This document shows, in pieces, positions 451 through 63,927 of a stretch of 64,000 bases of DNA. The first letter of the stretch is position 1. Each line of letters starts with the position of its first letter. Where the stretch lies: assembly GCF_006345805.1 (NCBI RefSeq), contig NC_043016.1, positions 26,970,001 through 27,034,000 of the forward strand, given 5' to 3'. The notes beneath the pieces are model-generated. The model had not been told where the DNA came from and did no database searches. It saw only the letters and a list, made by a program, of their open reading frames with translations. Source of the DNA: Octopus sinensis (Eukaryota). Made by a program: the position numbers and the translations under genes.

Positions 451-929
451 ATTATTATTATCATCTTCTTTCAATTCTGTTTCCATAGATGCAGGAGTGG
501 ATGTGTGGTAAGTAGCTTGCTAACCAACCACATGGTTCCAGGTTCAGACCCACTGCATGGCACCTTGTGCAAGTGTCTTCTACTATAACCTCAGGCCGAC
601 CAAAGCCTTATGAGTGGATTTAGTAGACAGAAACTGAAAGAAGCCCGTTGTATATATATATATATATATATAATCAATAATAACAAAGGGTAAAATTAAT
701 TAATTAACTAGTAATCAATAATTTCACCAAGTAGAATTCGGCATGAAAAAGGACCATTTCAAGGTAAACTTAAGTAATACTTTATAATTAGGGTTTAGCA
801 AAGATTTGCTTTACCACATACCAAAGTTCAGAAATAGCAGCCAAAGAACTCCCGAAAAAAACAAAGTACTCGAAACCAATCCACGCAGGCAGAGAGGAAA
901 AATAACGAAAATCAATCGATATTTGATTA

Positions 930-1012
930 CCCATGTATGCGTTTCGGAATTAGATCGGTATAAAGAATGTAGAATTTATACTTTACCCGAACATTTTCTT
1001 CATCAGCAGGGG
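930..1012 (-). ncRNA. Type I hammerhead ribozyme motif, slightly degraded copy
   Basis: Minus strand CCCCTG-CTGATGA-A-long stem II-GAAA-CGCA-TA-CATGGG; one stem I mismatch and a CpG-type change in stem III. Confidence 0.7.
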
Positions 1013-1143
1013 ACTTCACAATATTAAATATTAAAAATATTAAATCCAAATATATTTATTATATTCAATTCTCTTCCAGAGATATATTCAATTCTTCCAG
1101 TGCCTTTGGATTTAATATTTTTAATATCTAATATTGTTGGAGT

Positions 1144-1226
1144 CCCATGCTGATGAAGAAAATGGTTGGGTAAAGTATAAATTCTACATTCTTTATACCG
1201 ATCTAATTCCGAAACGCGTACATGGG
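1144..1226 (+). ncRNA. Type I hammerhead ribozyme motif (PLE-type, minimal palindromic stem III)
   Basis: Stem I CCCATG (1144-1149)/CATGGG (1221-1226); core CTGATGA 1150-1156; GAAA 1211-1214; ACGCGT palindrome; GUA site, predicted cut after 1220. Confidence 0.85.
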
Positions 1227-1631
1227 TGACCAGATATAGATTGATTTTCGTTATTTTTCCTCTCTGCCTGCCCGGATTGTTTTTGAGTACTTTGTTTTTT
1301 TCGGGAGTCTCTTTTTAAAGTAGAGGAAATAGCTAAGATTCTTTGGCTGCTATTTCTAAACTTCAGTATGTGGTAAAGCAAATCTTTGCTGAACCCTAAT
1401 TATAAAGTATTACTTAAGTTTACCGTGAAATGGTCCTTTTTCATGCTGAATTCTACTTGGTGAAATTATTGATTACTACTTAATCAATTAATTTTACCCT
1501 TTGTTATTATTGATAATATAATTTTCTCCGAGATCATAAACTACAGATTTTTTCTGTAGTATCTTTACTTGATGACACACATGGATGGGCAGGGGAAGGT
1601 GATGAACCTCATTCTGAACCCTATTTATAAA

Positions 1632-1670
<39 letters not shown>

Positions 1671-1747
1671 CGTGTGTGTATGCTGAACCCTAATTATAAA
1701 ATATATATATGTGTGTGTGTATATATGTATATATGTATGTATGTATG

Positions 1748-1781
<34 letters not shown>

Positions 1782-2004
1782 TGTGCGTATATATGTTTGT
1801 GTGTCCGTCCCCCAACATCGCTTGACATCGATGCTGGTGTGTTTACATCCCCGTAACTTAGTGGTTCGGCATAAGAGACCAACAGAATAAGTATTAGGCT
1901 TATAAAGAATAAGTCCTGGGGTCGATTTTCTCAACTAAAGGCAGTGCTCCAGCATGGCTGCAGTCAAAATGACTGAAACAAATAAAAGAATAAAAGAATA
2001 AAAT

Positions 2005-4800
2005 AATTTCTTGCCAAGTGTCTTCCTGACACCTATGGCATAGAAGTTCACTGTATGCATTGGTAGGCCATTAAAATAAAGACACCAGATTGTCCCTTGT
2101 CATGTGATAGAGAAAAAGGTGAAGAAAGACGGAGATGGAAAGGAAAAGATAAAAAAAGATAAAATTGTAAAGAAAGAAAATATAGGGGAAAAAGGAAAGA
2201 AAATTCACAGTGACAGTACTCTTCTCAATATGTGTGATGTGCCAGTTAAGACAACCTTTTGCACTTCCTGCATGAAAGGTAAGCCAGGGATCATCCTCAA
2301 ATAATTTTCAGTTCTTTTTCTGTTCATTCCAAGTATTCCTACAATCATTGGTGTTGTAACCATCTTGAAATGCCACATCTTTTCAATTTCAATCAGCAAA
2401 TCTTTATATCTTCTGAGCTTATCAAATTCTTTTGCCAAGATATGATAACAAGGTATGCTCATGTCAATCGATAAATAGACTTTATCGTTTTGGTCTTTCA
2501 CAACAATATCTCTTTTATTAGTTTTGGTGGTCCAATCTGTACATACTGGAAAGTCCCAAAGAATCATTACATTTTCTCCCTCAGCTACAGCTTCAGGGTG
2601 GTGCTTGTACCATTTGTCAGCAATTTTGATTTTATAATGTTGACATATTTTTGACTTTGACAGGATGTTTGATTTTATAATGTCAATATCCAGTGTAGAT
2701 ATTGACCAACTCTGTCATGTCTTGATTTATACTCTAAAGGTGCTAAACCCTTACACCCAGAGATTAGGTGGTCCACTGTTTCAATCTTATCATTGCAGCA
2801 TTGGCACTTTGGGTCTACACCATTTTTCATCACATTAGCTTGATAGTTCTGAGTCAATAAGCTCTGATCTTGAGCAGCCAAGATAAAACCTTTACTCTCT
2901 GCTTTTAACCCTGAGCTCTGTAGCCATTGATGGGTGTGCTTCTGGTCTACATCAGCTTGTTTGCTACGGACCACATATTTGTTGTGCAGAGGTTTTTGTT
3001 CCCACCTATCAGCTAAATGTTCAAATGCATTTTGCTTTACCATTGATTTCACCTTCTTTGCAACAACAGTTGATGCACTTCCATCATGCCGTTCAACCTG
3101 GGTATTTGCATGAACCCACTAGCAAATTTTTTGCTTTCCTTCATGAAGCTTCTTACATCTCTTGTGGTTTTCAACAAGTTTTAGCATCTGGTCATCAGAT
3201 GTTTCAAGATATTTGGCCAATCCAACTGTGGTGGTTTTGTAGGAGATTTCAAACTGGATCAAGCCTCAACCTCCTTGAGCTCTGGAAGGTTAAGACGATC
3301 TGCATTTGTCATTGAGTTGTGTATCTTATTGCAAGTTAGCAGCTTATGCATTTTCCTGTCAATTTACCTTATTTTGCTGATATTTCAGTCCAACACATTG
3401 TAACTATAAATAACAGCTGGAACTGCTAAAGAATTTATGGCTAACGCTTTGTTATGGACATTTAACTCAGATTTTAGGACTGCTTGAACTCTCCTATAAC
3501 ATTCCTTCATGATCTTCTCTTTCATGCTTGCATGCTGAATGCCAGAGCCTTAATTTATTCCAAGGTATTTGTAAGTTTGTTCCTGCTCAAGTTCTTTAAT
3601 AATTGTGTCAACATTTAACCCTTTCATTACCAACCCAGCTGAAACCGGTTCTGTCTCTGAGTACAAATGCCTTGTTTTCAATCATTCTGAATTAAAATCT
3701 TCCACCAAACCTTAGTCACAATTTATGTTCCTAACACTAGCAGAATGATAACTAAGTTATTTTACTAAATTCTTTGTTATATTTTAAATAATTGAAAGAA
3801 ACAGAGAGCATCTCAAAATAAATACAGTAACGAAAGGGTTAACACCATTGAATATAAGGTTGTCAATTTTCCTTTCTGGAAAGTAGCCTTGGCACATTTA
3901 TCAAAACCAAATTCCATCCCAATGCCATCACTGAATGCTTTCACAGCATGTAATAGTCCTTCAAACTCATTATCATCTTTGCCATAGAATTTTAAGTCAT
4001 CCATATAAAATAGATGACTTATTTTCTTGTTGCTAATTTTATACCCATACCTTGTTCTGTTAAGTTCACTTGTAAGGGTATTTGGGCAATGCAAAAAATT
4101 AGAGGTGAAAGTTATTCACCTTGGAAAATGCCACAGTTCATATTAATATTGTTTGTGGTCAGTACTCCATTAGGGTGGTATAATTGGAGATTCGTATTCC
4201 ACATCGACATGTTGTGCTTCAGGAAGTTTGAAATCACGGGAGAAATTTTGAAGATATCCAGCGATTTCAAGATCCATGAATGCAGTGTGTAGTCAAAGGC
4301 CTTTCCATAATCAATCCATGCAGGTCTGAGATTTCTGTGTTTGTTATGACAGTTCTCAATGATCATGCAATTGATTAAGAGTTGGTCTTTGCATCCATAT
4401 GAACATCCTCGACACCCTTTTTGTGCAGTAAGGAAAATATTGTTGTTCCATAAATTTGTATGTTTCCTCCACAAGGATGGATGTTAAACTTTTATACATG
4501 GAAGATAGACATATTATGGGCCAATAGTTTTGAGGAAATTTGGGTTCATTATGTTTCAGGAGTGGGTAAGTAATACCTCTTGCTAACCAATCAATGGCTG
4601 TCTATCATTACCAGGGGATTACTTTCATGAGAGTCATCCTTAAGTCTTAAGTGTTAAGTCATGAGAATCATCCTTAAGCCTGTGATGGCTTCCCATGCTT
4701 GTTTGCTAAATTTTGATAGGATCCTTCTGTACATCTAATCCAGTCTGCATTTTCATTGTTTGTCTTTTCATCGCACCAAATATTTTTCCAAAAGTTTGCA
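2005..4800 (-). mobile_element. Degraded R4/Dong-like non-LTR retrotransposon (RT, CCHC knuckle, restriction-like endonuclease, 3' UTR)
   Basis: Collinear broken ORFs GCKDQLLIN, AWIDYGKAFD, GIFQG, SHLFYMDDLK, IGMEFGFDKCA, FILAAQDQ, CQCC..ETVDHLISGC..RHD, ILWDFPV, IDMSIP. Confidence 0.92.
3619..3838. mobile_element. piggyBac-type MITE family 1 inserted in the R4-like RT
   Basis: TTAA on both sides; termini CCCTTTCATTAC...GTAACGAAAGGG; reverse-orientation copy at 55017-55235. Confidence 0.9.
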
Positions 4801-5026
4801 ACTTCTTCCATGGGAGGTGAGGGTCTTCAATGGTTATTTTCTCCTTCTCTATTTTTCTGTAGAATGCTTTTGCATTGGATGTGAACAGCTTATTTTGCTT
4901 GTAAAACTTGTTTCTCTTCTCAAATCTTTATTTTCTTTGAGCTTTTGCTTGGACTTTTTGCTGCAGTGTTTCTTTCTGTTGACAGCAGTTCTTCTGTTGG
5001 TGGGAATCTATATTTTCTCTTGGTCT

Positions 5027-5150
5027 TTCTTCTTCTTCTTCTTCTTTCTTCTTCTTCTTCTTCTTCTTCTTCATCCTCCTCCTCCTCCTCCTCCTCCTCC
5101 TCCCCCTCCTCCTCATCCTCATCATCATCGTCATCATCATTATTATTATT
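5027..5150. repeat. Compound trinucleotide microsatellite (CTT)n(CCT)n(CAT)n(TAT)n
   Basis: Direct reading; explains the poly-E/S/P ORFs at 4760-5232. Confidence 0.95.
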
Positions 5151-5165
5151 AATGTTATTATATGA

Positions 5166-10217: not shown

Positions 10218-10405
10218 TCAAAATTTGGTACAAGGTCAACAAATTCAAAGGATGAATAAATTTATTATGACTGGTACTTATTTTATCAACCTCAAAAGGA
10301 TGAAAATCAAAGATTACCTTGGGGGAATTTGAACTCAGAAAGTAAAAGATGAATGAAATACCACTAGGCACTCTGTCCAGTGTGCTAACGATTCTGCCAG
10401 CCTGC
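9890..10405 (-). mobile_element. Two SINE family B copies separated by (AAT)n
   Basis: Reverse-complement family B motifs at about 9890-10100 and 10215-10405. Confidence 0.75.
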
Positions 10406-10408
10406 TTC

Positions 10409-10433
10409 TGTAGTAGTGGTAGTAGTAGTAGTG

Positions 10434-10504
<71 letters not shown>
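10409..10504. repeat. (TAG)n microsatellite
   Basis: Direct reading. Confidence 0.97.
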
Positions 10505-11295
10505 CTTAGACAAATACAGTACATCACAGCAGAGGAGTCTTGGTTATGGCTGAAGAATGGAGAACTTCAGAAAGTAACAGAAGGACTCATAATGGCTGCT
10601 CAAAGCCAGTCATTGCAGACAAATACCATTAATGCCATAATAGACAAATCCTTGGAAAGTGTAAAGTGCAGAGTAGTTAATGAGAAAGAGGAATCCATTA
10701 TGTACATTTGTTCCTGTAGTCCTTTGGCACAGAAGGAGTACGGACACAGACACAGCTAATGTGGACAAGACACAACACTGGGACATATTATGGCAATGAT
10801 TTAAAGTAGAAAAAAAATGGTACCAACATCAATCAGAATGACCATTAATGACCAGAGAATGATCATTACAAGATTTTGTGGGATTTTAATGTACAGACTG
10901 ATTGTGAAATTCATGCCAGGCAACCAGATATTATGGTTCACGATGAGGGAATGAAAGAGTGCACCATCATAGATGTGGCTATATCTGCAGACATTAATGT
11001 TGCAGTCGAAGAAAAGGAGAAAATTGGAAAATACCAGAATTTGGCTTGGGAAATATGGCGAATGAAGAGGGTTTCTACAAACGTAATCCCAGTTGTCATA
11101 GGTGCTGTTACCATCAGAGTTAAAAGCTCCTTTATTGGGATAGGTGTAACTACAAGAGTTGCATTGATTTAGAAATCTGCTCAATTGGGAACAGCAAGGA
11201 TTTTAAGAAAGGTCATTGATATTTAAATCAAACTGGTTGTGACCCAGTATCAAGGACATTGATTCTAAATGAAAAACATTCAAGCACAGCATGAA
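10505..11295 (+). mobile_element. R4/Dong-like 3' fragment
   Basis: WLKNGELQKVTEGLIMAAQSQSL, WDFNVQTD..ARQPDI, IIDVAI, VIPVVIGA; ends in (TAA)n. Confidence 0.9.
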
Positions 11296-11360
11296 TAATA
11301 ATAATGATGATTATAATAGTAGTAAAGATAATAATAATAATAATAATAATGATAATAATA

Positions 11361-11770
11361 GGAAATAGGAAACCAGACATAGTGTTAAATGAGAAAGAAA
11401 GCAAATGATGCTGGATCATAGATATAACATGCCCAGCTGACAACAAGGTATGCGATAAGGAAGAAAGAAAGGTCAATAGATATAACAGGTTAGCTTGGGA
11501 GTTTAAGCAGTTGTGGTTGCTGAAAAACACAGTAGTAGTACCAATAATTGTTGGAGCCCTGGGAACAGTGAGTAAAAATCTTGTGAAGTATATGAAACAA
11601 ATAGGGGCTGCAATAAGGGTGGATCACTTGCAGAAAATAGCACTGCTTGGAACGGCTTGAATATTCTGAGTGGTGCTCGAAAAATAAGGGTTGTTACCTT
11701 AGTTCACTGGTAGTGAACAGCTGACACCACAATACATCTCCAGCATTAGAAGCTGTGCAAAGACAATAAA
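11361..11770 (+). mobile_element. R4/Dong-like 3' fragment
   Basis: RKPDIVL, IIDITCPAD, VVPIIVGALG, ALLGTA; flanked by (TAA)n. Confidence 0.88.
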
Positions 11771-15920: not shown

Positions 15921-17800
15921 GATGGGGCTCCTTAACCATGGAGAAGGCATCCCATCTGGGAGGGGGAAACTCTGGTATAAAACCAGGTCTTTGGTTGCTG
16001 AGGATCTCCTTAACAAGGTTGTACTATCAGAGATGGAAACTTCTGAAGAAAAAGCCTGAAGTGTGTTGTTCTTGGTATTGTGGCACATATGTGCACCATA
16101 CCCTTGCTATCATCACTTCCAAAAAGTGTAGCTGGTTCTTCACAAGCCTTCAACACTTAAATCAAACCATATGTGTGGGTTTTCTGACAACTTGCATCTA
16201 TTCATTCAATACTGTCCAGTTCCAACTTGCAAAAACTCGAAGTCCCTGGCAAGTGAGTGAGATCGGTAGGGACAGGTAAAGGATATTACTGGAAGACTCT
16301 TGCTGGATCTCTACACAGTCGGTGACCATTGAGTGATGGGTGTTCCAGCAAGTAACTGTGCTGTCTGTGTCCTGTAGTGGTGACAAAGTAGGTCTATTTA
16401 GATACAGCACTGCTTTCCCCAACAAGAGGACGAGTGAGAAAAGGAGCCCTAAATATTGCTTACTCAGCTTAAACTTGCTATCCAACTGCGATTATTCAGT
16501 AACACATTTGAAACATGAAGAAATCTAAGAACATTAACCTTGGTTCTTGGAATGTGTACTCTCTCCAAAACAATCACTCAGCACCAGAATGAAAAATGGC
16601 ACTGGTTGTCCTTGAAGAAATACAACATTGACATAGCTGCACTCAGTGAAACTCATCTTACAGGATCACCACAGTTCAAAGAAAGTAAAGGTGGATACAT
16701 ATTTTTCTGGTGTGGAAGAAATGAGGATGGGCCACACCACTCTGATGTTGGTTTTGCCATCAAGACAGAAATAGCTAGATGCCTTCTTTCTCTACCCAAA
16801 AGTATTTCTGATTGTATCATGACACTAACGTTGGAACTTGATCACAACATTTGTGCTATGCTTGTCAGTTGCTATGCTCCAACCATGGCCAGCACTGAGC
16901 TGAAAAAGGATGAATTTTATAGCCAACTCTGTTATGTTATCTCCAGTTGTCACCATAGGGATAAACCTATCCTTTAATGCTTGTGTTGGTACTGACTATC
17001 AGGCATGGGAGGGTGTACTTGGGTCACCATAGTGTAGGTCAAATGAACTCCAGCAGTCTGCATGTGCTCTCCATCTGCAGGGAATTCAGTCTAAGCATCA
17101 CAAATACCTTTTTTCAACAGCGAAATTGTTGCAAAACAACGTGGATGCATCCAAGATCTAATGATTGGTATCTTTATAGACTATTATCACCAAGAAGTGA
17201 GATATTAGGGACTTTAACATTACATGTTCCTTTCATAACACCTGCTATCTCTCAGACCATTTTCTTCTTCATAGTAAGGTTACATTCCTCCTGAACACAA
17301 GACTACAAAAGACATCAGTGTCTAAGTGAATTGAAGAGTAGGTTGAGTTCTCTATCAAGTTGGACAATGCATTCAACACTGTTGATATCAGTGATGACAT
17401 AGAATCATCTTGGAAGGTTCTGCGTGATGCAACACACTTTGCACCTGTAAAGGTTCTGGGACTTCCTGTTCATAAATATCAAGACTGGTTCAGTGATAGC
17501 AACACAGATGTCCAGCAGTTGATAACAAAATGCATAGCTCTCATAAAACATGGATAAATAATAAGAGCTCATCCAGAAAAGAGAATGCTTATAAGAAATG
17601 CAGAGGCCAGGTCCAACGTGCTCTGATGCAGGTGAAAGGAGGCTTGGTGGTCTTCCAAGGCTACTGAACTCCAAGAAGCTGCAGACAGAAAGCATTTTAA
17701 AGCCTTTTATGGTGTTACTGTTGACTGACAAATCTTACATCTTGAAACAATGGAAAGATCACTTTGTAGCTGTGTTGAACTCTACCTCAGTCACTAATGT
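15921..17800 (+). mobile_element. RTE-clade LINE 5' portion (5' UTR and degraded AP endonuclease)
   Basis: YNIDIAALSETHL, GYIFFWCG, VGFAIK, CYAPT, ITNTFFQ, KTTWMHPRS, QDWF; frameshifts and stops. Confidence 0.9.
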
Positions 17801-19877: not shown

Positions 19878-20613
19878 TTTACTTGCTTCAGTCATTTGAC
19901 TCTGGTCATGTTGGGACGTCGCTTTGAGGAATTTTTAGTCAAAGGCATCGACACCCCCCCCCCAGTATTCAGTTATTTAATTCTATCGGTTTCTTCGTCC
20001 GAACCGCTAAGTTATGGGGACGTAAACACATCAACACCGGTTGTCAAGCAGCGATGGGGGGGGGGGACAAAAGCAGACATAAATATATACGATGGGCTTC
20101 TTTCCGTTTCCGTCCACCAAATTCACTCACCAGAGTTTGGTCGCCCCAGGCAATAGTTGAAGTCACTTGTCTGTGTGTGCCACACAGTGGGTCTGAATTC
20201 GGAACCATGCGGTTGGGAAGCAAACTTCTTACCGCACAGTCACGCCTACGCCTACATATATAGTATGGTTCCGGGTTCAGTCCCACTGCGTGGCACCTTG
20301 GGCAAGTGTCTTCTGCTATAGCCCCGGGCCAACCAATGTCTTGTGAGTGGATTTGGTAGAGGGAAACTGAAAGAAGCCTGTCGTATATATATATGTGTGT
20401 GTGTGTGTGTCTGTGTTTGTCCCCCTAGCATTGCTTGACAACCGATGCTGGTGTGTTTATGTCCCCGTCACTTAACGGTTCGGCAAAAGAGACCGATAGA
20501 ATAAGTACTGGGCTTTCAAAAGAATAAGTCCCGTGGTCGATTTGCTCGACTAAAGGCGGTGCTCCAGCATGGCCGCAGTCAAATGACTGAAACAAGTAAA
20601 AGAGTAAAAGAGA
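19878..20613. mobile_element. Two family A SINEs head-to-head (19878-20253 minus; 20266-20613 plus)
   Basis: Both match the consensus and retain CpGs. Confidence 0.9.
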
Positions 20614-25345: not shown

Positions 25346-25352
<7 letters not shown>

Positions 25353-25649
25353 TTAATAAGGGTGAGAGAATTAGATACTATTTAATAGTATATCTATTCA
25401 ACACCAAGTGGCCCAGTGCTTCGAGAAACCTGGATTATTATAATATTTTATAATATATTATAATATTTTATACAAAAATAAATATAAGAGAATGGTCACT
25501 ATGTGGCTCATTCTAGCACTAGAAAATCCAAAAGGTTTCAACCACAAAAATACATGTTTCCCATGAAAGGGAAACATGTATTTTTGTGGTTGAAACCTTT
25601 TGGATTTTCTAGTGCTAGAATGAGCCACATAGTGACCATTCTCTTATAT

Positions 25650-25657
<8 letters not shown>
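25346..25657. mobile_element. Fold-back insertion: perfect 89-bp inverted repeat plus one-sided tail, in (TA)n
   Basis: Arms 25474-25562 and 25569-25657, loop ATGAAA; tail 25346-25473 shares aaggg and caccaagt terminal motifs with 673-1514. Confidence 0.85.
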
Positions 25658-36230: not shown

Positions 36231-36322
<92 letters not shown>

Positions 36323-36462
36323 CAACTTATAAATAAGGGCAAACGAAAAATTTCTAATGCCAAAAATTGGACATATTGTCCATTTACCATATCATTTTTT
36401 CCCCAGTACGCACACTACTCGAAAAAAGGCCGACAGAAATCTCTAAGAATTCCATTATTACC

Positions 36463-36518
36463 ATATCGGACCGATTTCAGGGTTAGTTCAAAAAGAACCC
36501 TCCCTTCGTCAGTGATAC
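36463..36518 (-). ncRNA. Hammerhead ribozyme motif (left-arm copy)
   Basis: Reverse complement of 36560-36615. Confidence 0.75.
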
Positions 36519-36559
36519 ATGTGGTATGAGTAAGTATCTCATTTACTTCTTTGCCACAT

Positions 36560-36615
36560 GTATCACTGACGAAGGGAGGGTTCTTTTTGAACTAACCCTG
36601 AAATCGGTCCGATAT
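36560..36615 (+). ncRNA. Type I hammerhead ribozyme motif
   Basis: GTATCA-CTGACGA-AGGG..GTTC/GAAC..CCCT-GAAA-TCGG-TC-CGATAT; GUC site; A.C mismatch at the first stem I pair. Confidence 0.78.
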
Positions 36616-38019
36616 GGTAATAATGGAATTTTTTAGAGATTTCTGTCGGGCCTTTTTTCGAGTAGTGTGCGTGCTGGGAAAAAAAATGATATGGTAAATG
36701 GACAATATGTCCAATTTTCGGCATATTTGGCATTAGAAATTTTTTCGTTTGCCCTTATTTATAAGTTGTTTATAATTTAACCTTTAAAGGTATTTTTTAA
36801 TATGCTGGCCATTGATAAAATTTTTTTTGGGAAAAAATTTTATCCTACATTATATATATATATATATATTTGTTTTTTTTTTTTCAATGACTCTGAAAAA
36901 TTTTTTTTTCTGTTTAGCATTATACATAGCTTCATGCATAGTTTTTCTGTCTCCCAAATCTTTCTCTGTTCCCCTCCCCCCTCCCCCCCCCCCCCCCCCG
37001 GGCTCCTTCCTCCTCCCCATCCTGCAAAAAGGAAAAGAGAAAAAGAACCTATAACAAAAACAGATTACTGAAACTAGGCTAGTTTCTGGTGCTGCTTGCT
37101 ATTATTATTGTAATAACTTGAAAAGAAAAAGGAAAAAGCAACTGAAAACAGACTAATGTGACTCTTTTCATTCACTAAACTTTGTTCTTTTGGTGGAGTT
37201 TATTGTTTGTTTTTATTTCCACCCCCTTTTGTCTTTCACATCTTCCTTCTACCACTGACTGGCTCTGTACACCCCCCCACCATGATCTCCCATTCTCCAT
37301 CACACTAATTGCCCCAACCTCTTGGATAGGGTGGGATTCAGGGAACATAGTATGCCTTGCAGAATATTCTCCACTCCCCTCTCTCTTAAATACTGTTGCT
37401 CTTTCTCTCCTACACATACACACACATTTTAGGGTCAAATCTCTTGTAATCTTGCTAAGTTTCATTCAGTTATCTGTTCCTCTTCTTCCCCTCCTTACAC
37501 CTTCATTTAGTATATTCTCTCTCTCTCTCCATTATTTTCTTTTCTCCCTTCCTACTGTTAGGGAGACAGCTAAATTGGGAAAGAATGAGGGGTAGGTGAG
37601 AGGGGAAGGGAGAATTGCTCCACTCCGACCCCACCCCTTACGCACTGTCAATAATTTAAGAGGAAATATAAACCAAAGTTTCAGAAAAGTAGTGGTGGTC
37701 TGTATGTGGGTTGGTGGGTAGGGGAAAATAAGTTAATAACCTGCAAATCTGAATTGGTTTCATACTCTTATATCATGGTAAATATTTGAATTCCTATAAT
37801 TTCAAGCAAATGTAAGGACCTCTCTTTATTTAGATTTGGGTAGTAGCAGCTGAGACACTTGGTCCCTTAATCCTTGACCAGAAAATCTCTCCCTCTCTCT
37901 TCACACATTTTGTGAATAATAGCATTGTTATTGGTTTTCTAACTGAACAGATCCTGTTTCTCTGCATTATTTCTAATATTGACAGTGACGCAGTTAATAC
38001 CACAAGGCATTTTCATTCA

Positions 38020-41323: not shown

Positions 41324-41823
41324 TTTAATGTGGATATTCTCTAAGAGATGATGAAATTGCAGTTTTAACCCCAGGAAGATATCTCTTCCAGCTGCTTTAT
41401 TCAGTGCACTTTCCACACTTGATATTTATTGCAAGCGTGAGGTAACTACTACCATCCTAGCTGTGCGACCACCAGGCTACATGATTTCAAACTTATTGGA
41501 TCTCTTCAGTGGTGGGCACTCATTTGCCAGGCACAGGAATAGTTTAACCTCACTTGCAATATATAGAAAATACGGTGTCATACAATTACTGATTCTGTAA
41601 CTAGGAAACTAGTCAGTTAGAATATCTCTGTTTGAGAAAGAAGCAGTACACAATCCAATAAGACTGAAATCACATGGTTTGGTGGTATCAAAGCTAGAAT
41701 GGTAAGAGTTATCTGGCACTTTTAATAAATATTGAGTGTGGAAAGTGCTCTGAAAAGACCTGCAGGAAGAGGTCTCTTCCTGGGATTAAAATTAGTAACG
41801 TCTCTTAGAGAACACACATTAAA
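41324..41823. mobile_element. Old element with diverged approx. 100-bp inverted arms and a degraded hammerhead in the spacer
   Basis: 41324-41430 is an imperfect reverse complement of 41724-41823; motif at 41463-41519 on the minus strand. Confidence 0.6.
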
Positions 41824-41882
41824 ATACTACCTTTTGGTTCGTATATTGCTTCTATCTTGAGCAGAAATTTTCTGAATAGTTT

Positions 41883-41916
<34 letters not shown>

Positions 41917-41921
<5 letters not shown>

Positions 41922-43911
41922 TATTATAAAAGGCAGATTTTATCTCTTATTATAAAAGGCAGATTTTATCTGCCTCTCTTTGGGAGTTATACAAATCTAC
42001 AATATAGGATTTCTTCAATTACAATTTACCTAGCATTTTTAAGAGTACAATGCATCGCATCATGCCAGGTCCAGTTTTTAAAATTTAAACTCCAATTAAG
42101 CAAAATTTACAGAAAACTCACATTCTGGTGTGTGTCAAATGCTTTTCTTAGTCTGGTTTACAGCACACGCAAACGCACACACACAGTGTGCAATGAATAA
42201 ACTGAAACTAATTCACTGTGTGTTGACAGGTAGAAAATAGAATGCGATGGCTATGGCGATGGCGATGTAATATTTGTTTCTCTCTATGACGCTCATAAAA
42301 GCATTGATGTACATGTGTGCGTGCGTGAGTGTGTGTGTGTCATTCCTCACACACACGCATACACATACATATATGAGAGTGGCAAACACAAACGTTTCAA
42401 ACAACTACATACAAACACGTGTGTGTTTGTTATTAGTAAAAAAAGGCGCCAAAACAACTCATTTATCATTCCAACACATTTGCAAAGACACACGGACGGT
42501 TGAATAACAATACAGAAAAGGTAAATTGGTTTTTATTTTACTCTGTATATATTTTATTATATAATATATATATAGATATATGTATATATAATTGCAACCC
42601 AACCGCCCGAAAAAAATTTTGGTTAATGTGACCAAGCCCCCGAATTTACCTATTCATATTTAAATGAGAATATCAGAGTAAATCTCTTTAGAACATTCGT
42701 GAAAACACGTATTATACTTCGTAAACAGTTCAACTACAGTTTTGTACAAAATCGAAGTGTAATTTTAATTCCGTGAATTATGGGAGATTTTTTTCCGAAA
42801 TTTGTTCCTATTGTGTTTTCAAAATTTGTAATTCTGACAAAAATGGATACGAATTTCATTATATCAAGCAGCGAGTCAGAATTCGAAGGATTTTCTACTG
42901 AAGACCTTCATAAATCTAACTCTATGACTGAAAAAAAAAAGCATGTGGTATTTGATCTCAACCTAAACAAAGCGAAAGAAACGATAGTTTGTTATTTCCC
43001 ACAACCTTAATGAAATTAAGGCCTATTTTGCCATAAATATTATTATGGGTATTAGAAAGTTACCCAGAATAACAAATTCTATCGTAAAATTTTGTTGTAT
43101 ACCCAATTGAATATTAGCTAATAACCCATTTTCTATAGCGATGTTTGAACAAAATTTTAATAATTTTATATATTGTTGAATTTACCTGTATCTACCTGCA
43201 ATTAGAGTCACTTTGTGACAAAAATTATAGTATAGAATTGGTTGAGAACATTTCACTAAATTATCTTCCAAAAATCAGATTAATGTATTCATAAATAAAA
43301 AAGTTATAGTTGTTTAATGAAACCAGACTAAATTTATGATTACGTTAGAAATTAATTGAAACACATAAGGGGTGTTTTTGGTCAGAAATATAGTAACGAA
43401 AGAGTTAAGAAAAACCAAAAAATATTTTATTCTTTGTAAATGTTGTGTTCAAAATAACATTTTCTTTTAAGAATGTGTATATAACAAAGTATGTGTATAT
43501 AACTACGTGGCTTATATCTTTATATATAAGAGTGAAGTTGTGTGTCTGTCTCCTACGATTTAGATTCGTAACTACTCCCACATTTTGCGGTGTAGTTTAA
43601 CCAAAAGCGGGTATCTTATAGTCGTGATTCATATCGAGCCCTTCTGGGTATTAGCGCGCGTCTACGATGAGTCTACGATTTAAAAAAAATTTACCATCAT
43701 ATTTTTCCATTTTAATGCATATTTTTCGTTATTATATAAGGGAAGTAACTCTCTAAAAATATCTACGATGTGTCAACGATTTAAAAAAAAATTACCTTAA
43801 TTTTTTTCAATTTTTAATGCATTTTTTTGCTATTTTTTGGCTATAACTCTCTAAAAATGCTTATATAGTTATTTCCCTTACAAACCCGAGCAACGCCGGG
43901 CGATACTGCTA

Positions 43912-53930: not shown

Positions 53931-55016
53931 CTGAATGATACTGACCTCTCTGGGATTTGAGCTCAGGACATAGAGAACCATAATTAGACACCCTATATTA
54001 ATAATAATATATAGTCAGGGAAAAAAACAGCCATGTCTTTATGCATATGCTCATGTACACGCGCACACACACACACTCTGTTATAGTGCCAAGGTTGGTC
54101 TGTTACTCCAAATTTCATAAATCTTGGCTAATCAGAAAAAAATTACGAAAGTAGTCAATACAAAAATAGAGCAATTATTACAGTACTGAAATAATTCTGT
54201 TGCCACTGTAATGTAAATCTGTGCTGATTGGAATTGCCAGAGCCTTGGTAATTAAGCAAAAATTTGCAAAGTTTAACACTAACAATTGTTCTGTTTGTAT
54301 ATTTAGTACTTTTGGGACTTCAAGCATATGTACATTTTCACACACACATGCACATGGGTGTGTAGGCACACTGATCCACATATAAACCCACAAAAAACAC
54401 ATACACATCCATATGATAATCAAGTACAAAGCTTAATTTGTAACAAAGAATGACTAATCTGTTGAACTGGGAAGATATAGTGTGTGTTAACTTCCTTGTC
54501 TGAAGCAATTAAATTTTGATTGGTGGTAGTTGAAGTAGTAATAATAATAATAATGTAACAATAGGATTTGTAATAAATGATACAAAAAACAAGCTGGCTT
54601 ATTGATGCCTACTTTAAACAGAAGAAATATTAGCAATTGTGGTGATATATTTCAAAGATGACTCTCCCTCTTTAATGTACAAAAGAGTAACAGTAGTTTT
54701 GTGGACATAAAAACTTGTCTCTGTTATTCCATTCCATGCCATGAACCCTCAACTCCTGATGGAGATGTAGGGTGGGGGGTACCACTGTTATATACATCAT
54801 TTGGCCATTTTTAGACTTGGCATTAGACCATCACTCTCACAGTGATAGGTTCTGCCTATAGTATGATTTTATCTTTGTTATAGTGTGATTTCAAATATGT
54901 ATTTCTACTCTATTACAATACAGTATTAACAGTGGAAGTTTTAGGGACAAATATGCATACAACACAGCAGTTGCAGCAACAGCAGCAAGAGTTTTCTGGA
55001 CATATCTCTATCTTAA

Positions 55017-55235
55017 CCCTTTCATTACTGTATTTATTTTGAGATGCTCTGTGTTTCTTTCAATTACTTTAAATATAAGAAAGAATTTAGTAAAACAACT
55101 TAGTTATCATTCAGCTAGCGTTAGGAACATTAATTGCGACTAAGGTTTGGTGGAAGATTTTAATTCAACACTTATGAAAACAAGACATTTGTACTCAGAG
55201 CCAGACCGGTTTCAGCCGGGTTGGTAACAAAAGGG
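55017..55235. mobile_element. piggyBac-type MITE family 1
   Basis: TTAA TSD and CCC/GGG termini; reverse complement of 3619-3838; a related older MITE follows at 55260-55480. Confidence 0.9.
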
Positions 55236-56393
55236 TTAAACATAGTGAAAAAGTATTCATCCTTTTGAATCCAACCTTTTTGAGACCACTTCTGGTTTGT
55301 GTAATACAAACTTATTTAAAAGTAGTTTAATTTATAACCGTCCATCAAAATTTATCGTTAATTTATGTTCCAAGCATAAGTTTAATAATGACAAAGTTAT
55401 CTTACTAAATTCTTCATAATTGTTTCAAAATTGAAACAAAAGCAGTGTAGTTTCACAGAAATATAATAACAGAAAGGTTAAACACATTCATTTCTCAAGA
55501 CATGAACTTAAGTAATTGCTTTTGCAGTTTTCCAGATAAATTCTAAATTAGAATAGATAAAAGTTTTAATGGCTGTGTGCTTAAGAACCTCCCACTTTGG
55601 GCAGGTGTCTTCTTCTATAGACCCAGGCTGAATGATTCCTTGAGAGTGAATTTGGGAGATGGGTATGTGTGGAAGCCTATCTGTCTGTCTTTCTGTGTTT
55701 GTCTGTTTGCATGTGTTTGTGCTCCACCCTGCTTGACAACTGACACTAGTTTGTTTAATTCCTGTAACTTAGTGGTTCAACTAAAGAGGTGCAAAGAATA
55801 AGTACCCGACTTTGAAAAATTTTCTATTTGTACTAGGTTCATTGAATATTTGTAAGCTTCTTCATTGGCTCAACACACCTTGTTGTAGTTGGTGAGACCC
55901 AGGCCAGCATTGGCCCAGTAGACCAAATGATCAAAGGCATTCCAGTCAACCAGCCAACCAGTTTTATTCACAAACTTAGCATATCTGAGACTACATGAAT
56001 GACCTGCCTAGTTTAAGTAAATAGTGACGTGATTTATGGGCAATTTAGGTATTATTTCTAACTGGTTGAGTGACTGTAGAGGCTCCTTTTATTATTTCTG
56101 TGCAAGCATTATTTGTGATGGTAGTTGGAGGAGAGGAAAAAGAATAACAGCTGCAGTAACAGTTTTTCTAACATGCACTAGATACATATGTTTCAAGATA
56201 TTTGTCTTACAGATCCCTCCCCTGTCTCTCTCTATATCTCTTCTCTTCCTTCTCTGCAAACAAACAAACAAAAAAAAAATCCATACAAAAAACTTTTATA
56301 CACTTTTATCAAAATCAGTTGTGTATCAAAATTCATGCATGCACACGTATTTAATCATTTTGGTTAAGACTATGCTGGAAGATTGCCTTGTAT

Positions 56394-57485: not shown

Positions 57486-57838
57486 TATGAGAAGTAGATC
57501 TGCTAGAGTCTCTTACCACTAAGGAATGTTCTCAAGAAAAATTTAGCAAACACCAGAACGTAAGCGAGCAAGACAAATGAAAAATAACAAAAATATAGAT
57601 TATTCACATACATGTTTCACTATTAACAGATTACGTGATTTTTACTTACGCAATTCGTCCGTAGATCTTCAGTGTGACCGTCCATACAAATATAAATTGC
57701 AGAACTATACACGGGAACGTCCGCACGAAATCGAACTATTACACTTGCAGTTATTTTTCAAAAGTCCTCGTTTTGGTATGTATAGTTCTGCAAATTACTC
57801 CCGTATTTGTCTGAGTGTTGGGTCTTTTGGGTGCTTGG
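57486..57838 (-). mobile_element. Inverted pseudo-LTR of a Penelope-like element (endonuclease C-terminus, 3' UTR, hammerhead)
   Basis: Minus strand KDPTLRQIRE (cf. PLE EN C-terminal RQI.E), hammerhead at 57604-57677, ends in (CA)/(TA)n. Confidence 0.75.
57604..57677 (-). ncRNA. Type I hammerhead ribozyme motif
   Basis: Minus strand TCACA-CTGAAGA-long stem II (CTA/TAG, ATTGCGT/ACGTAAT)-GAAA-CATG-TA-TGTGA; ACATGT palindrome; GUA site. Confidence 0.82.
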
Positions 57839-58632
57839 ATAAGATACGGATGTCAAGTTCTGCCCCATCAGGTCACAGAGGGGAAGACCACCCACCATCA
57901 GTGAAGAAAAGCACCACTGAGCGCTGGAGTGGTTGGACCTCACCCACCCAAAACCTTGAGAACAACAATCAGGTGAAAGAAATGATTGCATATGCAATAG
58001 GGGCCAGTGTAAAAACCACCATGAAGAACCACGTAGTAAAGTTTAACAAAAAACTATACATGCAGGTTCAAGGTGCAGCCATCGGTGTAGGTATAGCTGC
58101 AGATGTGGCTGGCCTATTCATGACCTGGTGGGACAGAAAACTTAAACAAATGTTAGCAGAACAGTCCACAACTCTTCTACTCTACAGTAGATATGTAGAT
58201 GACATGAATATCATAGTTAGGACTAACTCTAATGACAGTAATGTGGAAACCGAGAAGAACGTAATGGAGAGCATCTAGCAAATAGCTAACTCCATCCACC
58301 AAAGTATCAAGGTAGCTATAGATTACCCCACTAAGCACCCCAACAATAAACTTCCTGTACATGATACTGAACTTTGGTTAGAGACTGTGAACAATAGAGT
58401 GCAGCTCCTCCATTCCTATTACATGAAACCCGTAACTTCAAAATATGTTGTTCACAAGAACTCGGCTTTGTCACACAACATGAAAATTAACATACTGATA
58501 GGAGACTTAGTTAGAATAATGAACAATGTGTCCCCACTATGCGAACCCTATGAAACGAAAAAACATATACAGAACTTCATGCACCGCATGCAGTTCTCTG
58601 GGTATGATCAGAAAGATAGGGTTCGAGTATAC
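57839..58632 (+). pseudogene. Penelope-like reverse transcriptase fragment, truncated at both ends
   Basis: FCPIRSQRGRPPTI, frameshift, NHVVKFNKKLYMQVQGAAIG, YSRYVDD, TAG stop at 58276, KLPVHDTELW, YYMKP..VVHKNSAL, MQFSGY. Confidence 0.9.
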
Positions 58633-58649
58633 GGGGGGGGGGGCTAGAT

Positions 58650-58992
58650 AGAAATTTGACATCAAGATGTAGAACAAGATACGGCAATAGCCTGAGTTTC
58701 AGAGGTCCACAGCTCTTCAATATCCTCCCGAAAGACCCGAGAGACCTGCAAGGGGTGGATGTAGGTGTCTTCAAAATAGAGTTGGACCTCTTCCTGTCAG
58801 GTGTCCCAGATGAACCAACTTCACGGCAGGAGGTGCAGATGGGGGCAGCTGCATCACACTCTCTCATGCACAAATGTCAATTCCTAAAAGCAATCGTAAA
58901 GTAATATTATGTAGCAACACCAAATGGCGGTGCCCCAGCATGGTCACAGTTCGTGAGCTGAAACTTGATAAAATAAAATAAAAAATAAAAAA
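58650..58992 (+). mobile_element. CR1/L2-group LINE 3' end with 3' UTR
   Basis: SLSFRGPQLFNILP..FKIELDLFLSGVPDEP, then ggcggtgccccagcatgg and a (taaaa)n tail. Confidence 0.8.

Positions 58993-59249: not shown

Positions 59250-59250
<1 letters not shown>
59085..59250 (+). mobile_element. Short microsatellite-flanked insertion with a variant hammerhead (probable solo pseudo-LTR fragment)
   Basis: Unique 165 bp between (TA)n and (TC)n(TA)n; motif at 59139-59174. Confidence 0.55.
59139..59174 (+). ncRNA. Variant minimal hammerhead motif (core CUGUAGA)
   Basis: CTTT-CTGTAGA-A-GAGC gtag GCTC-GAAA-CG-TA-AAAG; conserved A6 replaced by U. Confidence 0.55.
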
Positions 59251-59326
<76 letters not shown>

Positions 59327-60174
59327 CATACATACATACATACATACATACATACATACATACATACATACAATACATACATACAATACAGAGAGAGAGA
59401 AAGAAAGAATATGTAATGATCTTTATCAGGTAGTCAGTATTTGAGTGCCTTGGCATTTTGAAGCACGATGGAGATAGGTCGTTTTCGCCCTTGCTCCCTG
59501 AATATAATTATATAGATACATGTAAATAAACACACAAACACATGAATGGGTGGACAAACGAAAGATGGGCATTCAACACACTTATTGGGAGTGACATGTA
59601 TGGATGAAAACTTAAAGGTTTGAAACTTAAATAGACTTAGAATCAAACTGTTTTGATCACATATATATTTATATCTCCCTAACTTTCTGATGAAAGGCGT
59701 GCTCTTTCTAACCTTGGTATTGTCTTATTTATAAATCCAAAGCGACATAGCAACATAGGGGAGGGAAAAAAATGAAACCCCCCCCCCCACAGAAATCCCG
59801 AAGTTACATGGCAACACACGAAACATTTATCAGACATCGTGTGTATATGTGTAATCTATATAATGAGGAAGGGGTGAGTGTAACGAAAAAACAATAAATG
59901 CAACAGTTGATACCGTTACGCGAACTCATGACAATTACGATGATGATATGAAGTAAAAATGTTATCGTTTGAATTATTTCTCCCAACCACCACCGCCACC
60001 ACCACCACCGCTCTTCCCCAAAATGTTTGAATAATCGTGGGAAATAAAACAAATACACACTCGTGCTTATCATTCGGAGTTTTTAGGTCCACCGAAATAG
60101 TTGGGACATTTTTGTGAATTGTGAGGGGATAGGGGATGACCACATCGACCAAATGTAAAAGAAAAAATTAAAAT

Positions 60175-60594
60175 AGGCGCAGGAGTGGCTGTGTGGTAAG
60201 TAGCTTGCTAACCAACCACATGGTTCCGGGTTCAATCCCACTGCGTGGCATCTTGGGCAAGTGTCTTCTGCTATAGCCCCGGGCCGACCAATGCCTTCTG
60301 AGTGGATTTGGTAGACGGAAACTGAAAGAAGCCTGTCGTATATATGTATATATGTATATATATATGTGTGTGTGTGTGTTTGTACCCCTAGCATTGCTTG
60401 ACAACCGATGCTGGTGTGTTTAGGTCCCCGTCACTTAGCGGTTCGGCAAAAAGAGACCGATAGAATAAGTACTGGGCTTACAAAAAGAATAAGTCCCGGG
60501 GTCGAGTTGCTCGACTAAAGGCGGTGCTCCAGCATGGCCGCAGTCAAATGACTGAAACAAGTAAGAGTAAAGAGTATGAAACAACGAATGGAAC
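60175..60594 (+). mobile_element. SINE family A, full length, little diverged
   Basis: A-box-like tggctgtgtggtaag, B-box ggttcaatccc, CpGs intact, (agtaa)n tail. Confidence 0.94.
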
Positions 60595-61869
60595 AACTTA
60601 TTTTTATGTGTGTTATAAGTGAAAGGCTTGGGGGTTACTGAATCACAAGATTGAAATTCCACTGTACGAAATAATAGCGTATGACTTCCAGTGAATGACC
60701 TCATATAATATCTATGCTGGTTGTAATCGGAAGGTAGATATAGATAGAACGATGGACGGATAAACGAAGGTAGGCCGTCTGAGATAGACGTGGACAGATC
60801 AAATAGACATAGATGATGATAGATAAGGTAGAGGCAGTTCAGACGTTAGATGGATGGTATAATTCAGATAGACGTAGACAAATTATATGAATTGATAGTA
60901 TACGAGAGAGAGAGAAGCTTGATAATTAGGGAGAGGGGAAAGAAAAGATGCAAAAATAGACAAATATATAAACTTTGTGAGACAGCTAACTGGATGGATG
61001 GATGGATGAATATTATAGACTTACAGATTGATTGGTAGATAGTGAGAGAAAGAGAAAGAAAGAAAAAGGAAGGGTAATAGGAATGAGAACCTAGGAAGAA
61101 AGAAGAACGGGAAAGAAAGAGAATTTCAGTGAAGGGAGTATGTTGTGGCTATCTGGTAACAGCCTGGCCTACCAAACTGTAAAAGCTAAATTTAGCATCA
61201 GATGTGTGTATCTCTTTGTTGTTGTTGTTGTTGTTGTTGTTGTTTGTTGGTAGAAATGGTGGTGGTGGAAGGCGGATGGGATGGATGGAGGATCGCAAAT
61301 GTAGCACTTGGCTGTTTCGCTGCTGCTAAAATGTACTGTTTACAACAAAACGAAAACTGTTGATTATATTTTCTTTTTCTTTTTTTTTTTAAATTAATCA
61401 ACAACAAAGATCATCATTATTTAAGAGAAAAGGTAATTTTTATTTATTTATTTATTTATTCAATCACTCATTATATACACTTATACATAATAAGCACACA
61501 TATTTTACTCACAACACAAACATGTAGGAATATACGATGTTGAAAATGTAACTCATTCATTCTACTCTAGCTTGTTTCAGTCATTCTCCTGCGGCCATGC
61601 TGTAACATCACCTCGCGCGCGCGCGCGTGTGTTTTCGCCGATCGTATCGAATCCGAATGTATTTATTTATCTATTTCCAGCCTATTTTACTGAAGACTAT
61701 CGAATTACTTTGTTTAGGGGACAAACGTACAATTATAAATATAACTCACACATGTACATATCCGCAAAATTACACGTGTATAGTATATACACACACACTC
61801 ACCAGTAAGTTGTAACCTTCAGGGGTGCGAAATATGCACCGAGAGAGAGTGGGGTATGTGTAAATAAAT

Positions 61870-62100
61870 GTACATGTATGCCTGTATCGATATGTTTGTA
61901 TGTGTGTATGCATGTGCGTATGTATATAATTAATGTAATGTATGCATGTAATGTATGTATGTTATGTATGCATGTATGTATGTGTGTATGTATGTAATGT
62001 GTGTGTGTGTGTAATGTATGTGTGTAATGTGTGTGTGTGTAATGTATGTGTGTAATGTATGTATGTAACGTAACGTGTGTATATTGCGTGCGTGTATATA
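61870..62100. repeat. Degenerate (TG)/(ATGT)n microsatellite
   Basis: Direct reading. Confidence 0.85.
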
Positions 62101-62732
62101 AACCTATTTGTATCACTACAGACTGTTGTGATTGTTTAACATGGTAATTAAATTATTCTTTATATATTGAAAACCATTAATCAATTTTTCCAACTTATTA
62201 TAATTAGCTCATTCAGTTAAATTGTTGCTCTTTTTCATTGTAACGTACATTGAACATCAATCGCATGAATGTCGACAATGTGGGAATCGGCTACAAGGTC
62301 ATGGGCATAGTCTTTTTCTCTGAGTGATTTCTGTTATACATGAAGTGTGTATACGTATGTCTGGATATATGTGTATAAAATAACCTAGGTATGTTGTTTG
62401 TATGAACGTTTATTATATATATTCACATAACTGTAATTACTGACAGAGCGAAACGATACAGTAAGTTCCATAGGTGGAGTGGCAATGGAAAGTGAGGTGA
62501 AAAGGAAAGAACGATAAAAATACTGTATATATCAACAGTATGTATATACGCAAGAACCACATTAGAAAGGTTGTACGTAACTTTTAAGAAGTATATTAAT
62601 AAAATATCGAAAACTTCTTAGGGAATACACATATATATATATGAATACACACATACACATGTCTCTCTCTCTCCCGCTCTCTCACACACACACACTAGTC
62701 GTATGTATGTATGTATATATATATATATATAT

Positions 62733-63068
62733 GCTCTTTTACTTGTTTCAGTCATTTGACTGAGGCCTTTAGTCGAGCAAATCACTTATTCTTTGTAAGC
62801 CTAGTACTTATTCTATCGGTCTCTTTTGCCGAACCGCTAAGTGACGGGGACGTAAACACACCAGCATCAGTTGTCAAGCGACGTCGGGGGTGGGGGGACA
62901 TAGACTCACATATATATATATATACAACGGGCTTCTTTCAGTTTCCGACTACCAAATCCACTTACAAGGCTTTGGTCGGCCCGAGGCTATAGTAGAAGAC
63001 ACTTTTGCCCAAGGTGTCACGCAGTGGGACTGAACCCGGAAACATGTGGTTCACACAGCCACTCCTAG
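62733..63068 (-). mobile_element. SINE family A with small deletions
   Basis: Consensus match. Confidence 0.9.
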
Positions 63069-63156
63069 GCCTCTCTCTAGGCCTATATACATATATATAC
63101 GCACACACGCTTGTATGTATGTGTGTATATATGTTACATACATACACGCTAGTCGT

Positions 63157-63204
<48 letters not shown>

Positions 63205-63592
63205 TATATACACATATATACACACACACACACGCTGTTCGTTTAATTATCGTTACTTTTTTGAAGTTGCTATCTTTGTTCATTTTTCACTTATTTATCT
63301 AGCTTTGCTTGGAACTCCCCAGCTGCATTCTATTGAGGTATTTAATTCTCAGCTGTGGAATGTCTCTTGATGTCGGTTATTGAAGCACTAAACACACCTA
63401 AAATGTATACGAACTGTAGAGTTACGTTAGTTCTTTTAAGTTCCCTTTAAAAATTATATACCTTTGCTTTCGTCAGCCGGTGTGTTGATTGTGGAAGTGG
63501 TGCGTGTGTATAGTGAATATGTGCGCGTGTATGTATGTATATATGCGTGTATGTGTGTATATATATATATATACACACACACAAATACAAAT

Positions 63593-63927
63593 ACAATTGG
63601 CGCGTTGAAGGTGTTTGTAAGCCATTTAAGAAACACACAAAAGCCGTTCGATTCACTTCAACATTTAAGTTTAATTTGTCAAAATATTTTCGTCGCTAAA
63701 ATCCGCGACCTGTTCACTGAGATGCAGCACAGATTTTTGTCAGTGAACAGGTCGCGGATTTTAGCGACGAAAATATTTTGACAAATTAAACTTAAATGTT
63801 GAAGTGAATCGAACGGCTTTTGTGTGTTTCTTAAATGGCTTACAAACACCTTCCACGCTGCAATTGTTTTCGTTTCAGCACACGATCTCAGATCAAATCA
63901 CTTGCTATGCGAGTACACCCCCCCCCT
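63593..63927. mobile_element. Fold-back PLE-like element: inverted arms plus right tail
   Basis: Arms 63593-63720 and 63740-63867 are near-perfect with a 19-bp spacer; 60-bp tail to (TA)n; left flank (TA)(CA)n. Confidence 0.85.
63736..63785 (+). ncRNA. Type I hammerhead motif with compensatory G3-C8 core (GUGAACA)
   Basis: TTTGTCA-GTGAACA-G-GTCGC ggatttta GCGAC-GAAA-ATAT-TT-TGACAAA: 7-bp stem I, 5-bp stem II, AATATT palindrome. Confidence 0.72.

Follow-up and report, generated by a model that had tools for sequence, protein, structure and literature searches.

Hammerhead-bearing fold-back insertions in Octopus sinensis DNA as probable stub insertions of Penelope-like retroelements

We examined 64,000 nucleotides of Octopus sinensis DNA (assembly GCF_006345805.1, contig NC_043016.1, positions 26,970,001 to 27,034,000; hereafter the window, numbered from its first letter), in which four fold-back insertions, E1 to E4, carry hammerhead ribozyme sequences. 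Each of them consists of two copies of a hammerhead-bearing repeat end, set head to head, and has a one-sided tail. We propose that they are probably stub insertions of several families of Penelope-like retroelements (PLEs), the mirror half likely having been rebuilt at each landing. They are most likely an instance of a PLE insertion pattern already in print rather than a new self-copying system. The palindromes are not retrozymes, and it is probably not the palindrome that spreads as a unit. The templates may have been elements with open reading frames (ORFs) or short non-autonomous ones. An earlier note on this DNA had left two branches standing, very short PLE products or a recurrent non-autonomous, retrozyme-like system. 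The first is supported by the geometry, the tails, the TA flanks, the variable joints and the published PLE plan, and the second is opposed by several observations given below.

The four insertions lie where the earlier note had placed them and were the top four close inverted matches when the window was compared with itself by BLAST. As that note had also held, they are largely unrelated, with no alignable sequence in common, and they follow one plan in which arms of 94–100% identity stand inverted and head to head around spacers of 6–54 bp. By self-alignment, the arms of E1 (667-1050/1105-1520) are identical at 361 of 384 positions with one 31-nt indel and a spacer of 54 bp, those of E2 (25474-25562/25569-25657) at 89/89 with a spacer of 6 bp, those of E3 (36322-36524/36554-36769) at 200/203 with a spacer of 29 bp and those of E4 (63587-63720/63740-63873) at 129/134 with a spacer of 19 bp. 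Their parts are as follows.

673..1050, minus strand: E1 left arm, the shorter copy, outward-reading; hammerhead 1012-930, whose helix III loop has one change
1051..1104, no strand: E1 spacer of 54 bp, with an internal direct duplication of ~17-19 bp
1105..1514, plus strand: E1 right arm, with a type I hammerhead at 1144-1226 (core 1150) that has a palindromic 4-nt helix III loop and a long helix II; 31-nt insertion relative to the left arm
1515..1632, plus strand: E1 one-sided tail, terminating on (TA)n
497..1997, plus strand: host repeat resembling a short interspersed element (SINE), split by E1 into a 5' half (497-672) and a 3' half (~1632-1997), as aligned to two uninterrupted copies in the window
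25346..25473, minus strand: E2 one-sided tail of 128 bp, terminating on (TA)n
25474..25657, no strand: E2 palindrome, arms 25474-25562 and 25569-25657, spacer 6 bp
25571-25580, plus strand, and 25560-25551, minus strand: E2 3' half-cores (GAAA, palindromic 4-nt loop, UA)
36322..36524, minus strand: E3 left arm, the shorter copy, starting 12 nt before the core; hammerhead 36518-36463
36525..36553, plus strand: E3 spacer of 29 bp; it is plain upstream sequence belonging to the longer right copy, and contigs of the family cover it densely
36554..36769, plus strand: E3 right arm; hammerhead 36560-36615, core 36566
36770..36850, plus strand: E3 one-sided tail; copies of the family terminate on (TA)n at 36774 or near 36841-36850
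63593..63720, minus strand: E4 left arm, starting 3 nt before the core; 5' strand of stem I mostly gone
63721..63927, plus strand: E4 spacer (19 bp), right arm and tail of ~55-60 bp; hammerhead 63737-63784 with a G3-C8 core and U17

In every fold-back one arm is longer at both ends, on the spacer side as well as on the tail side. A one-sided tail was present in all five fold-backs, including E5 described below. The tails noted earlier are real, but they had been put at three, and that of E1 was overlooked. The insertion point of E1 is the central TA tract of the SINE-like repeat, which it splits cleanly. The arms of E2 begin 2 nt before G12, so that neither arm holds a whole ribozyme, and only the right arm of E4 has a full stem I.

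Several smaller features of these elements were recorded. An internal motif of E1 (~1389-1406) recurs as two short copies at 1614-1632 and 1686-1704, at or beyond the end of the tail, each followed by a TA/TG microsatellite. Just past the tail-side microsatellite of E4, at ~63938-63998, there is a tandem duplication (~19 bp plus a TA tract) which may start another repeat family. By eye, the E3 spacer contains a consensus-like 5' splice donor upstream of the ribozyme (36530-36535), and donor-like sites also occur just 3' of ribozymes. Introns occur in the pseudo-long terminal repeats (pLTRs) of PLEs. Short ORFs 3' of the ribozyme in E1 and E3 were rejected, being frameshifted or unlike between the arms.

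Two additional cases, an older fold-back (E5) and an element with a coding remnant (E6), were found in the window.

41324..41885, no strand: E5; arms 41324-41501 and 41653-41823 (136/171 identical), spacer 151, tail reaching (TA)n at 41885
57488..57860, minus strand: E6 inverted arm, with what are likely the final residues of a GIY-YIG-type endonuclease (57860-57795), a 3' untranslated region (UTR), a type I hammerhead (core 57672) and an end beside (CA)n/(TA)n
57858..58632, plus strand: E6 forward copy; 5'-truncated Penelope-like reverse transcriptase (RT) fragment with one in-frame stop

The E5 hammerhead, identified by eye at a place where neither of two descriptor scans gave a match, is decayed; it is whole in the left arm (core 41509, 6-bp stem I) and reduced to its 3' half in the right arm. 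The long arm of E5 begins 143 nt before the core. The helix III palindrome contains CpG-like sites at which the two E5 arms disagree. A 26-bp tandem duplication at 41915-41971, just past the tail-side microsatellite of E5, may start another repeat family. In E6, the RT fragment showed 44–48% identity to homologues over 221–252 amino acids (E 1e-55 to 1e-61); Pfam did not recognise it and its identity rests on these homologues, which carry a CX2-5CxxC linker. The endonuclease remnant (i-E 0.042) was the best of 4266 frame windows with a profile built from 16 sequences. The right end of E6 is cut off or replaced by a piece resembling a long interspersed element (LINE) at ~58640-58900. Its polarity runs from ORF end through UTR, ribozyme and ~185 nt to microsatellite, which is that of the fold-backs, and since E6 carries a PLE RT on this same plan, a PLE ORF is here seen attached to the fold-back polarity. 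The long arm of E6 begins inside the ORF end, 188 nt before the core. An arm that matches the 3' end of an autonomous PLE, which the earlier note had given as a mark of ordinary truncated insertions, was found at this sixth case (57488-58632) only. Across the elements, arms start anywhere from inside helix II to those 188 nt before the core, and the spacers form a series of 6, 19, 29, 54 and 151 bp, followed by at least 770 bp of ORF in E6.

The outer ends favor simple TA repeats, as the earlier note had observed of the flanks. A (TA)5+ tract is no more than 1 nt away from seven of the 11 outer ends checked and 11, 19, 22 and 296 nt away from the other four, while 2.6% of the window lies within 10 nt of such a tract. 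Target-site duplications are unreadable because the flanks are microsatellite. By eye, CCCT or CCT stands shortly before the TA tract at many outer ends (tails and short arms, E1–E5) of these otherwise unrelated elements; a shared priming signal is possible.

The hammerheads were located with descriptors over the window. Under a stem II rule, C3-G8 cores with a 4-nt palindromic helix III were found at 1144 (plus), 36560 (plus) and 36518 (minus), together with an imperfect C3-G8 core at 1012 (minus) and a G3-C8 core at 63737 (plus). The palindromic-loop matches numbered three for C3-G8 and one for G3-C8, against means of 0.03 and 0.0 in 30 block-wise dinucleotide shuffles. Scanned again with stem I made stricter and the stem II rule dropped, the window gave four matches against means of 0.02–0.03 in 100 shuffles; E3 was missed and 57672 on the minus strand was added. 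Both scans returned one sense core per strand. Three U3-A8 matches and one A3-U8 match elsewhere in the window were uncontrolled and were taken as chance. In all, minimal type I hammerheads that read outward are whole in E1, E3, E4 and E6, present as the 3' half in E2 and decayed in E5. The claim of a hammerhead beside the center reading outward on both strands stands for E1 and E3, for E2 as the 3' half only and for E4 with the qualification that its left arm is without a full stem I. The descriptors were positive in E1, E3 and E4, whereas Rfam returned no hammerhead family. Rfam matches to microRNA families on E2, E3 and E4 were below the gathering scores and were rejected, as any hairpin or microsatellite would give such matches.

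Both arms of E4 carry a compensatory G3-C8 core with U17 (63743-63749). An engineered C3G/G8C double change partly restores cleavage of a lizard PLE ribozyme (PMC11167929), and the core covariation reported from nature in the passages cited is U3-A8 (PMC4209133; PMC3088659). We make no claim to a first report of a natural G3-C8 core.

The E3 family was examined further in contigs from sequencing runs, which were aligned for four runs to 36500-36856 at 80% likeness. Of 24 listed runs, from four coded organisms, 20 contain some of E3, never more than 58% of its words. The four runs gave 4825, 4051, 2776 and 69 E3-region contigs, which shows that the E3 family is abundant, although summed contig depth is not copy number; no RNA run was listed for E3, and the 69-contig run (X13), which is RNA by guess only, has no bearing on expression. 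The spacer was covered about as well as the arms, indicating that it belongs to the upstream part of the longer copy, and in run X2 13 contigs with common sequence extend upstream of it. Among the best-supported ends, loose (TA)n ends follow 36774 in 36, 39, 30 and 1 contigs of the four runs, and a second end near 36841 (to 36850) occurs in 26, 21, 17 and 2 contigs; 508 further loose ends lie beyond these. The two family 3' ends bracket the tail and match the ends of the two E3 arms within ~5–10 nt. Four other inversion-type joints were seen among the best-supported rows, at 36523|36716 (two runs), 36543|36791, 36721|36781 and 36522>36720, each supported by one contig in any run; the right arm of E3 has a private 9-nt insertion, which makes positions near 36716-36721 imprecise. 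The segment 36500-36511, on the left-arm side of the E3 junction, was uncovered in three of the four runs and covered in the fourth by one contig with a different junction; this was discounted because contigs drop rare forms. Of eight sites at which the right arm departs from most of the family depth, the left arm has the right-arm letter at seven. Both arms of E3 thus appear to derive from one source molecule or locus, or to have been homogenized later.

These data bear on two explanations that dispense with retroelements. Long inverted arms, the lack of an ORF and the TA context could indicate MITEs (miniature inverted-repeat transposable elements) or foldback DNA transposons whose terminal inverted repeats are long, an alternative that the earlier note had named. 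Such elements are hardly reconcilable with a one-sided tail in all five fold-backs, two alternative 3' ends in the E3 family, variable centers, hammerheads at the inner ends and the absence of termini common to the elements, and we regard this explanation as highly implausible. Fold-back artifacts of assembly or amplification might be suspected from the 100% identity of the E2 arms, all the more as the evidence is assembled sequence rather than raw long reads. We consider this equally far-fetched, as the arms of E1, E3, E4 and E5 differ by 1.5–20% with indels, the arm ends coincide with the two biological 3' ends of the family, there are flanks outside the palindromes and E1 splits a SINE cleanly.

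We also searched metagenome contigs with a generic pattern of two head-to-head cores, which itself forces centers near the ribozyme. From eight of 64 parts, 120 loci were obtained (~980 estimated overall), 40 of them with short flanks only. Fold-backs made up 45 of the 120, with arms of 42–140 bp and spacers of 0–38; the other 75 were dropped as likely chance matches. These fold-backs lie mostly outside microsatellites, and the exact E3 ribozyme pattern gave 0 matches in the metagenome contigs. Thirteen of 35 listed related pairs were examined. Ten of them are independent loci with different centers, the common part reaching at most to a one-sided extension of ~22–50 nt, and the three with identical centers share both full flanks and are one locus seen twice. 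Inversion points that differ from copy to copy, which the earlier note had held to speak for ordinary truncated insertions, are therefore found both in the E3 family joints and in these pairs. In two metagenome groups, the 5' end of the long arm lies within ~7 nt across loci, judged by eye and with a pattern that selects for this.

The palindrome itself could be mobile in the manner of a retrozyme, if read-through RNA or a circle with a fixed center were copied and reinserted. The near-perfect arms, a ribozyme on each strand and the derivation of animal retrozymes from PLE pLTRs (bioRxiv 10.64898/2026.07.22.740005) are in keeping with this. Against it, none of the 10 independent pairs just described shares a center, the E3 family has joints at further positions and the junctions cut the ribozyme in both arms of E2 and one arm of E5. 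There is also no tandem sense ribozyme pair, and among 54 Tandem Repeats Finder rows of the window none is a head-to-tail array with sense hammerheads. Read-through RNA of the elements is predicted to form long hairpins (−152 to −564 kcal/mol), as had been proposed, but the sense ribozyme expected inside is predicted to be unformed: the mean pair probability of the ribozyme stems was 0.0 in E1, E3 and E4, compared with 0.46–0.89 when the RNA starts at the center. In these folding predictions the read-through hairpin would mask the ribozyme completely. A mobile palindrome is very improbable and has largely been refuted already.

The geometry has close precedents. Craig et al. described an inverted 5'-truncated copy adjoining the 5' end, a tail of 30–40 bp at one end and a (TA)n bias, the last named for Neptune, Hydra and Naiad (PMC8557442). 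Arkhipova et al. reported an inverted pLTR of shorter length, head-to-head palindromic junctions that they took as a sign of self-priming, solo pLTRs and mobilization in trans (PMC3846280). Frangieh et al. found that both strands are cut and extended at AT-rich sites, that two internal RT start sites bracket the tail and that ribozyme cleavage is unneeded (PMC11167929). Dual minimal hammerheads on opposite strands, 100–700 bp apart, were ascribed to truncated PLEs by Cervera and de la Pena in 2014 (PMC4209133), and a curation guide counts inverted pLTRs among the peculiarities of PLEs, together with 3' extensions (PMC8969392). A repeat annotation of Octopus vulgaris counts 31 recently active Penelope-like families, and its main text has no occurrence of "ribozyme", "palindrom" or "hairpin" (PMC13282606). 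At title and abstract level, we found no literature naming such palindromic mini-families; elements of this sort may be among the family sequences given in supplements.

On this basis we propose how the stubs may form. The RT/GIY-YIG protein would nick a (TA)n tract, as PLE biochemistry suggests (PMC11167929, PMC3846280), and cDNA synthesis would begin within uncleaved RNA at either of two fixed sites, with the sequence from one to the other becoming the tail. The cDNA would run 90–530 nt towards the RNA 5' end, often halting near the ribozyme, either at the RNA start or at a structure. The second arm could come from fold-back self-priming of the cDNA or from a second priming at the nick in the opposite strand; the data here fit both. 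Two 5'-truncated copies would thus be joined at the center, with the ribozyme as a passenger of the pLTR. Because all arms retain sequence 5' of the cleavage site, ribozyme cleavage has no visible role.

It is also conceivable, if unlikely, that the same chemistry acted on short ORF-less PLE derivatives made of a pLTR only, which have their own internal promoter and are moved in trans, each palindrome then being two outward promoter-plus-ribozyme units that can seed copies. All five fold-backs are ORF-less, with the short arm starting within 45 nt of the ribozyme, and the recurrent long-arm 5' ends in the metagenome groups, the high tail depth in the E3 family and the predicted folding of the ribozyme in RNA that starts at the center would suit such templates. 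In addition, pLTR sequences are sufficient in trans (PMC3846280) and non-autonomous Chlamys elements exist (PMC8557442). These short templates are harder to square with the 13 X2 contigs that run upstream of the E3 spacer and with the long arms that start well before the core in E5 and E6, and E2, which has lost its 5' half-core and everything upstream, could be no source. Slightly less likely still is a fuller version in which several ORF-less, pLTR-only mini-Penelope lineages spread in trans here, through cDNA that runs off where the RNA starts, a little upstream of the hammerhead, and folds back into two outward promoter-plus-ribozyme units, the lineage of E4 having fixed a natural G3-C8 core. 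If that were true, the compensatory core of E4 would demonstrate that ribozyme function is under selection in a non-coding PLE parasite.

Several results weigh against E1 to E4 being stubs of PLE families. No ORF-bearing element could be tied to the arms of E1 to E5, where tblastn with 154 PLE homologues gave two matches at chance level (E 0.027 and 0.048), and no metagenome locus among the 120 matched a PLE profile. None of 79 Rfam matches at E≤5 was to a hammerhead family. The endonuclease remnant of E6 is weak and fell outside the top 15 with a four-sequence profile. The short arms start within 45 nt of the core in all five fold-backs, which is tighter than plain random truncation suggests, and the tails, at ~55–128 bp, exceed the published 30–40 bp. 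The family data cover E3 only, in runs with at most 58% of its words and at 80% likeness, and two of the four other inversion joints have a side of less than 30 nt. Finally, the depth of the tail (36788-36811) was two to three times that of the arms, not lower; this suggests that the tail is common to more divergent subfamilies.

The stub-insertion reading can be set beside known systems. Like the canonical units of endonuclease-bearing PLEs (Penelope/Poseidon, Neptune, Nematis and Hydra; PMC8557442, PMC3846280), the elements have head-to-head arms of which one is shorter, a one-sided tail, a hammerhead in the repeat, (TA)n targeting and variable truncation, with an RT attached in E6 and, in the E6 homologues, the linker described for Neptune and Nematis. 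They differ in that E1 to E5 are without an ORF or a linked parent and have longer tails. With the dual hammerheads of Schistosoma mansoni (PMC4209133) they share a pair of minimal type I motifs that lie a few hundred bases apart at most, one on each strand, an extra base after A9, a palindromic helix III loop and the attribution to truncated PLEs; the core-to-core distance here is shorter (~25–145 bp), E4 has a G3-C8 rather than a U3-A8 core, and helix II of E1 and E6 is much longer. Animal non-LTR retrozymes (PMC7229834; bioRxiv 10.64898/2026.07.22.740005) are likewise small, ORF-less and PLE-related with a type I hammerhead, but as described they are head-to-tail tandem repeats with at least two sense ribozymes and form circles, whereas the pairs here are single and head-to-head, and each strand has one sense ribozyme or none. 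Short PLE-dependent elements that share 3' ends with autonomous families are also described as non-autonomous Chlamys elements, MRC1 among them (PMC8557442), and the families here may be non-autonomous as well; in the published description the Chlamys elements form pLTRs, are often head-to-tail and mostly are without canonical hammerheads.

Such palindromes are easily misfiled as MITEs or microRNA hairpins during annotation, and the density of six PLE-type ends in 64 kb suggests an undercount of PLE content. From thousands of copies, statistics on junctions and tails could tell fold-back self-priming from double priming in the PLE cycle. Short non-autonomous lineages, if they exist, would link PLE ends to retrozymes.

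The surrounding sequence is animal-like DNA with many SINEs, LINE remnants and microsatellites and no tRNA genes in the window. The SINEs presumably resemble those of octopus. Decayed LINE remnants at 2205-4483 (minus strand), 10346-11623 and 16519-17300 contain RT and endonuclease pieces with weak Pfam matches to RVT_1 and Exo_endo_phos. Two other close inverted matches were set aside, one (19980-20502) consisting of opposed SINE pieces and the other (55013-55481) of a TTAA-flanked element. The TTAA-flanked repeat, with CCC/GGG ends, occurs at 55015-55240 and 3643-3842; it is a terminal-inverted-repeat element, in contrast to E1–E5, and we take it to be piggyBac-MITE-like from its resemblance.

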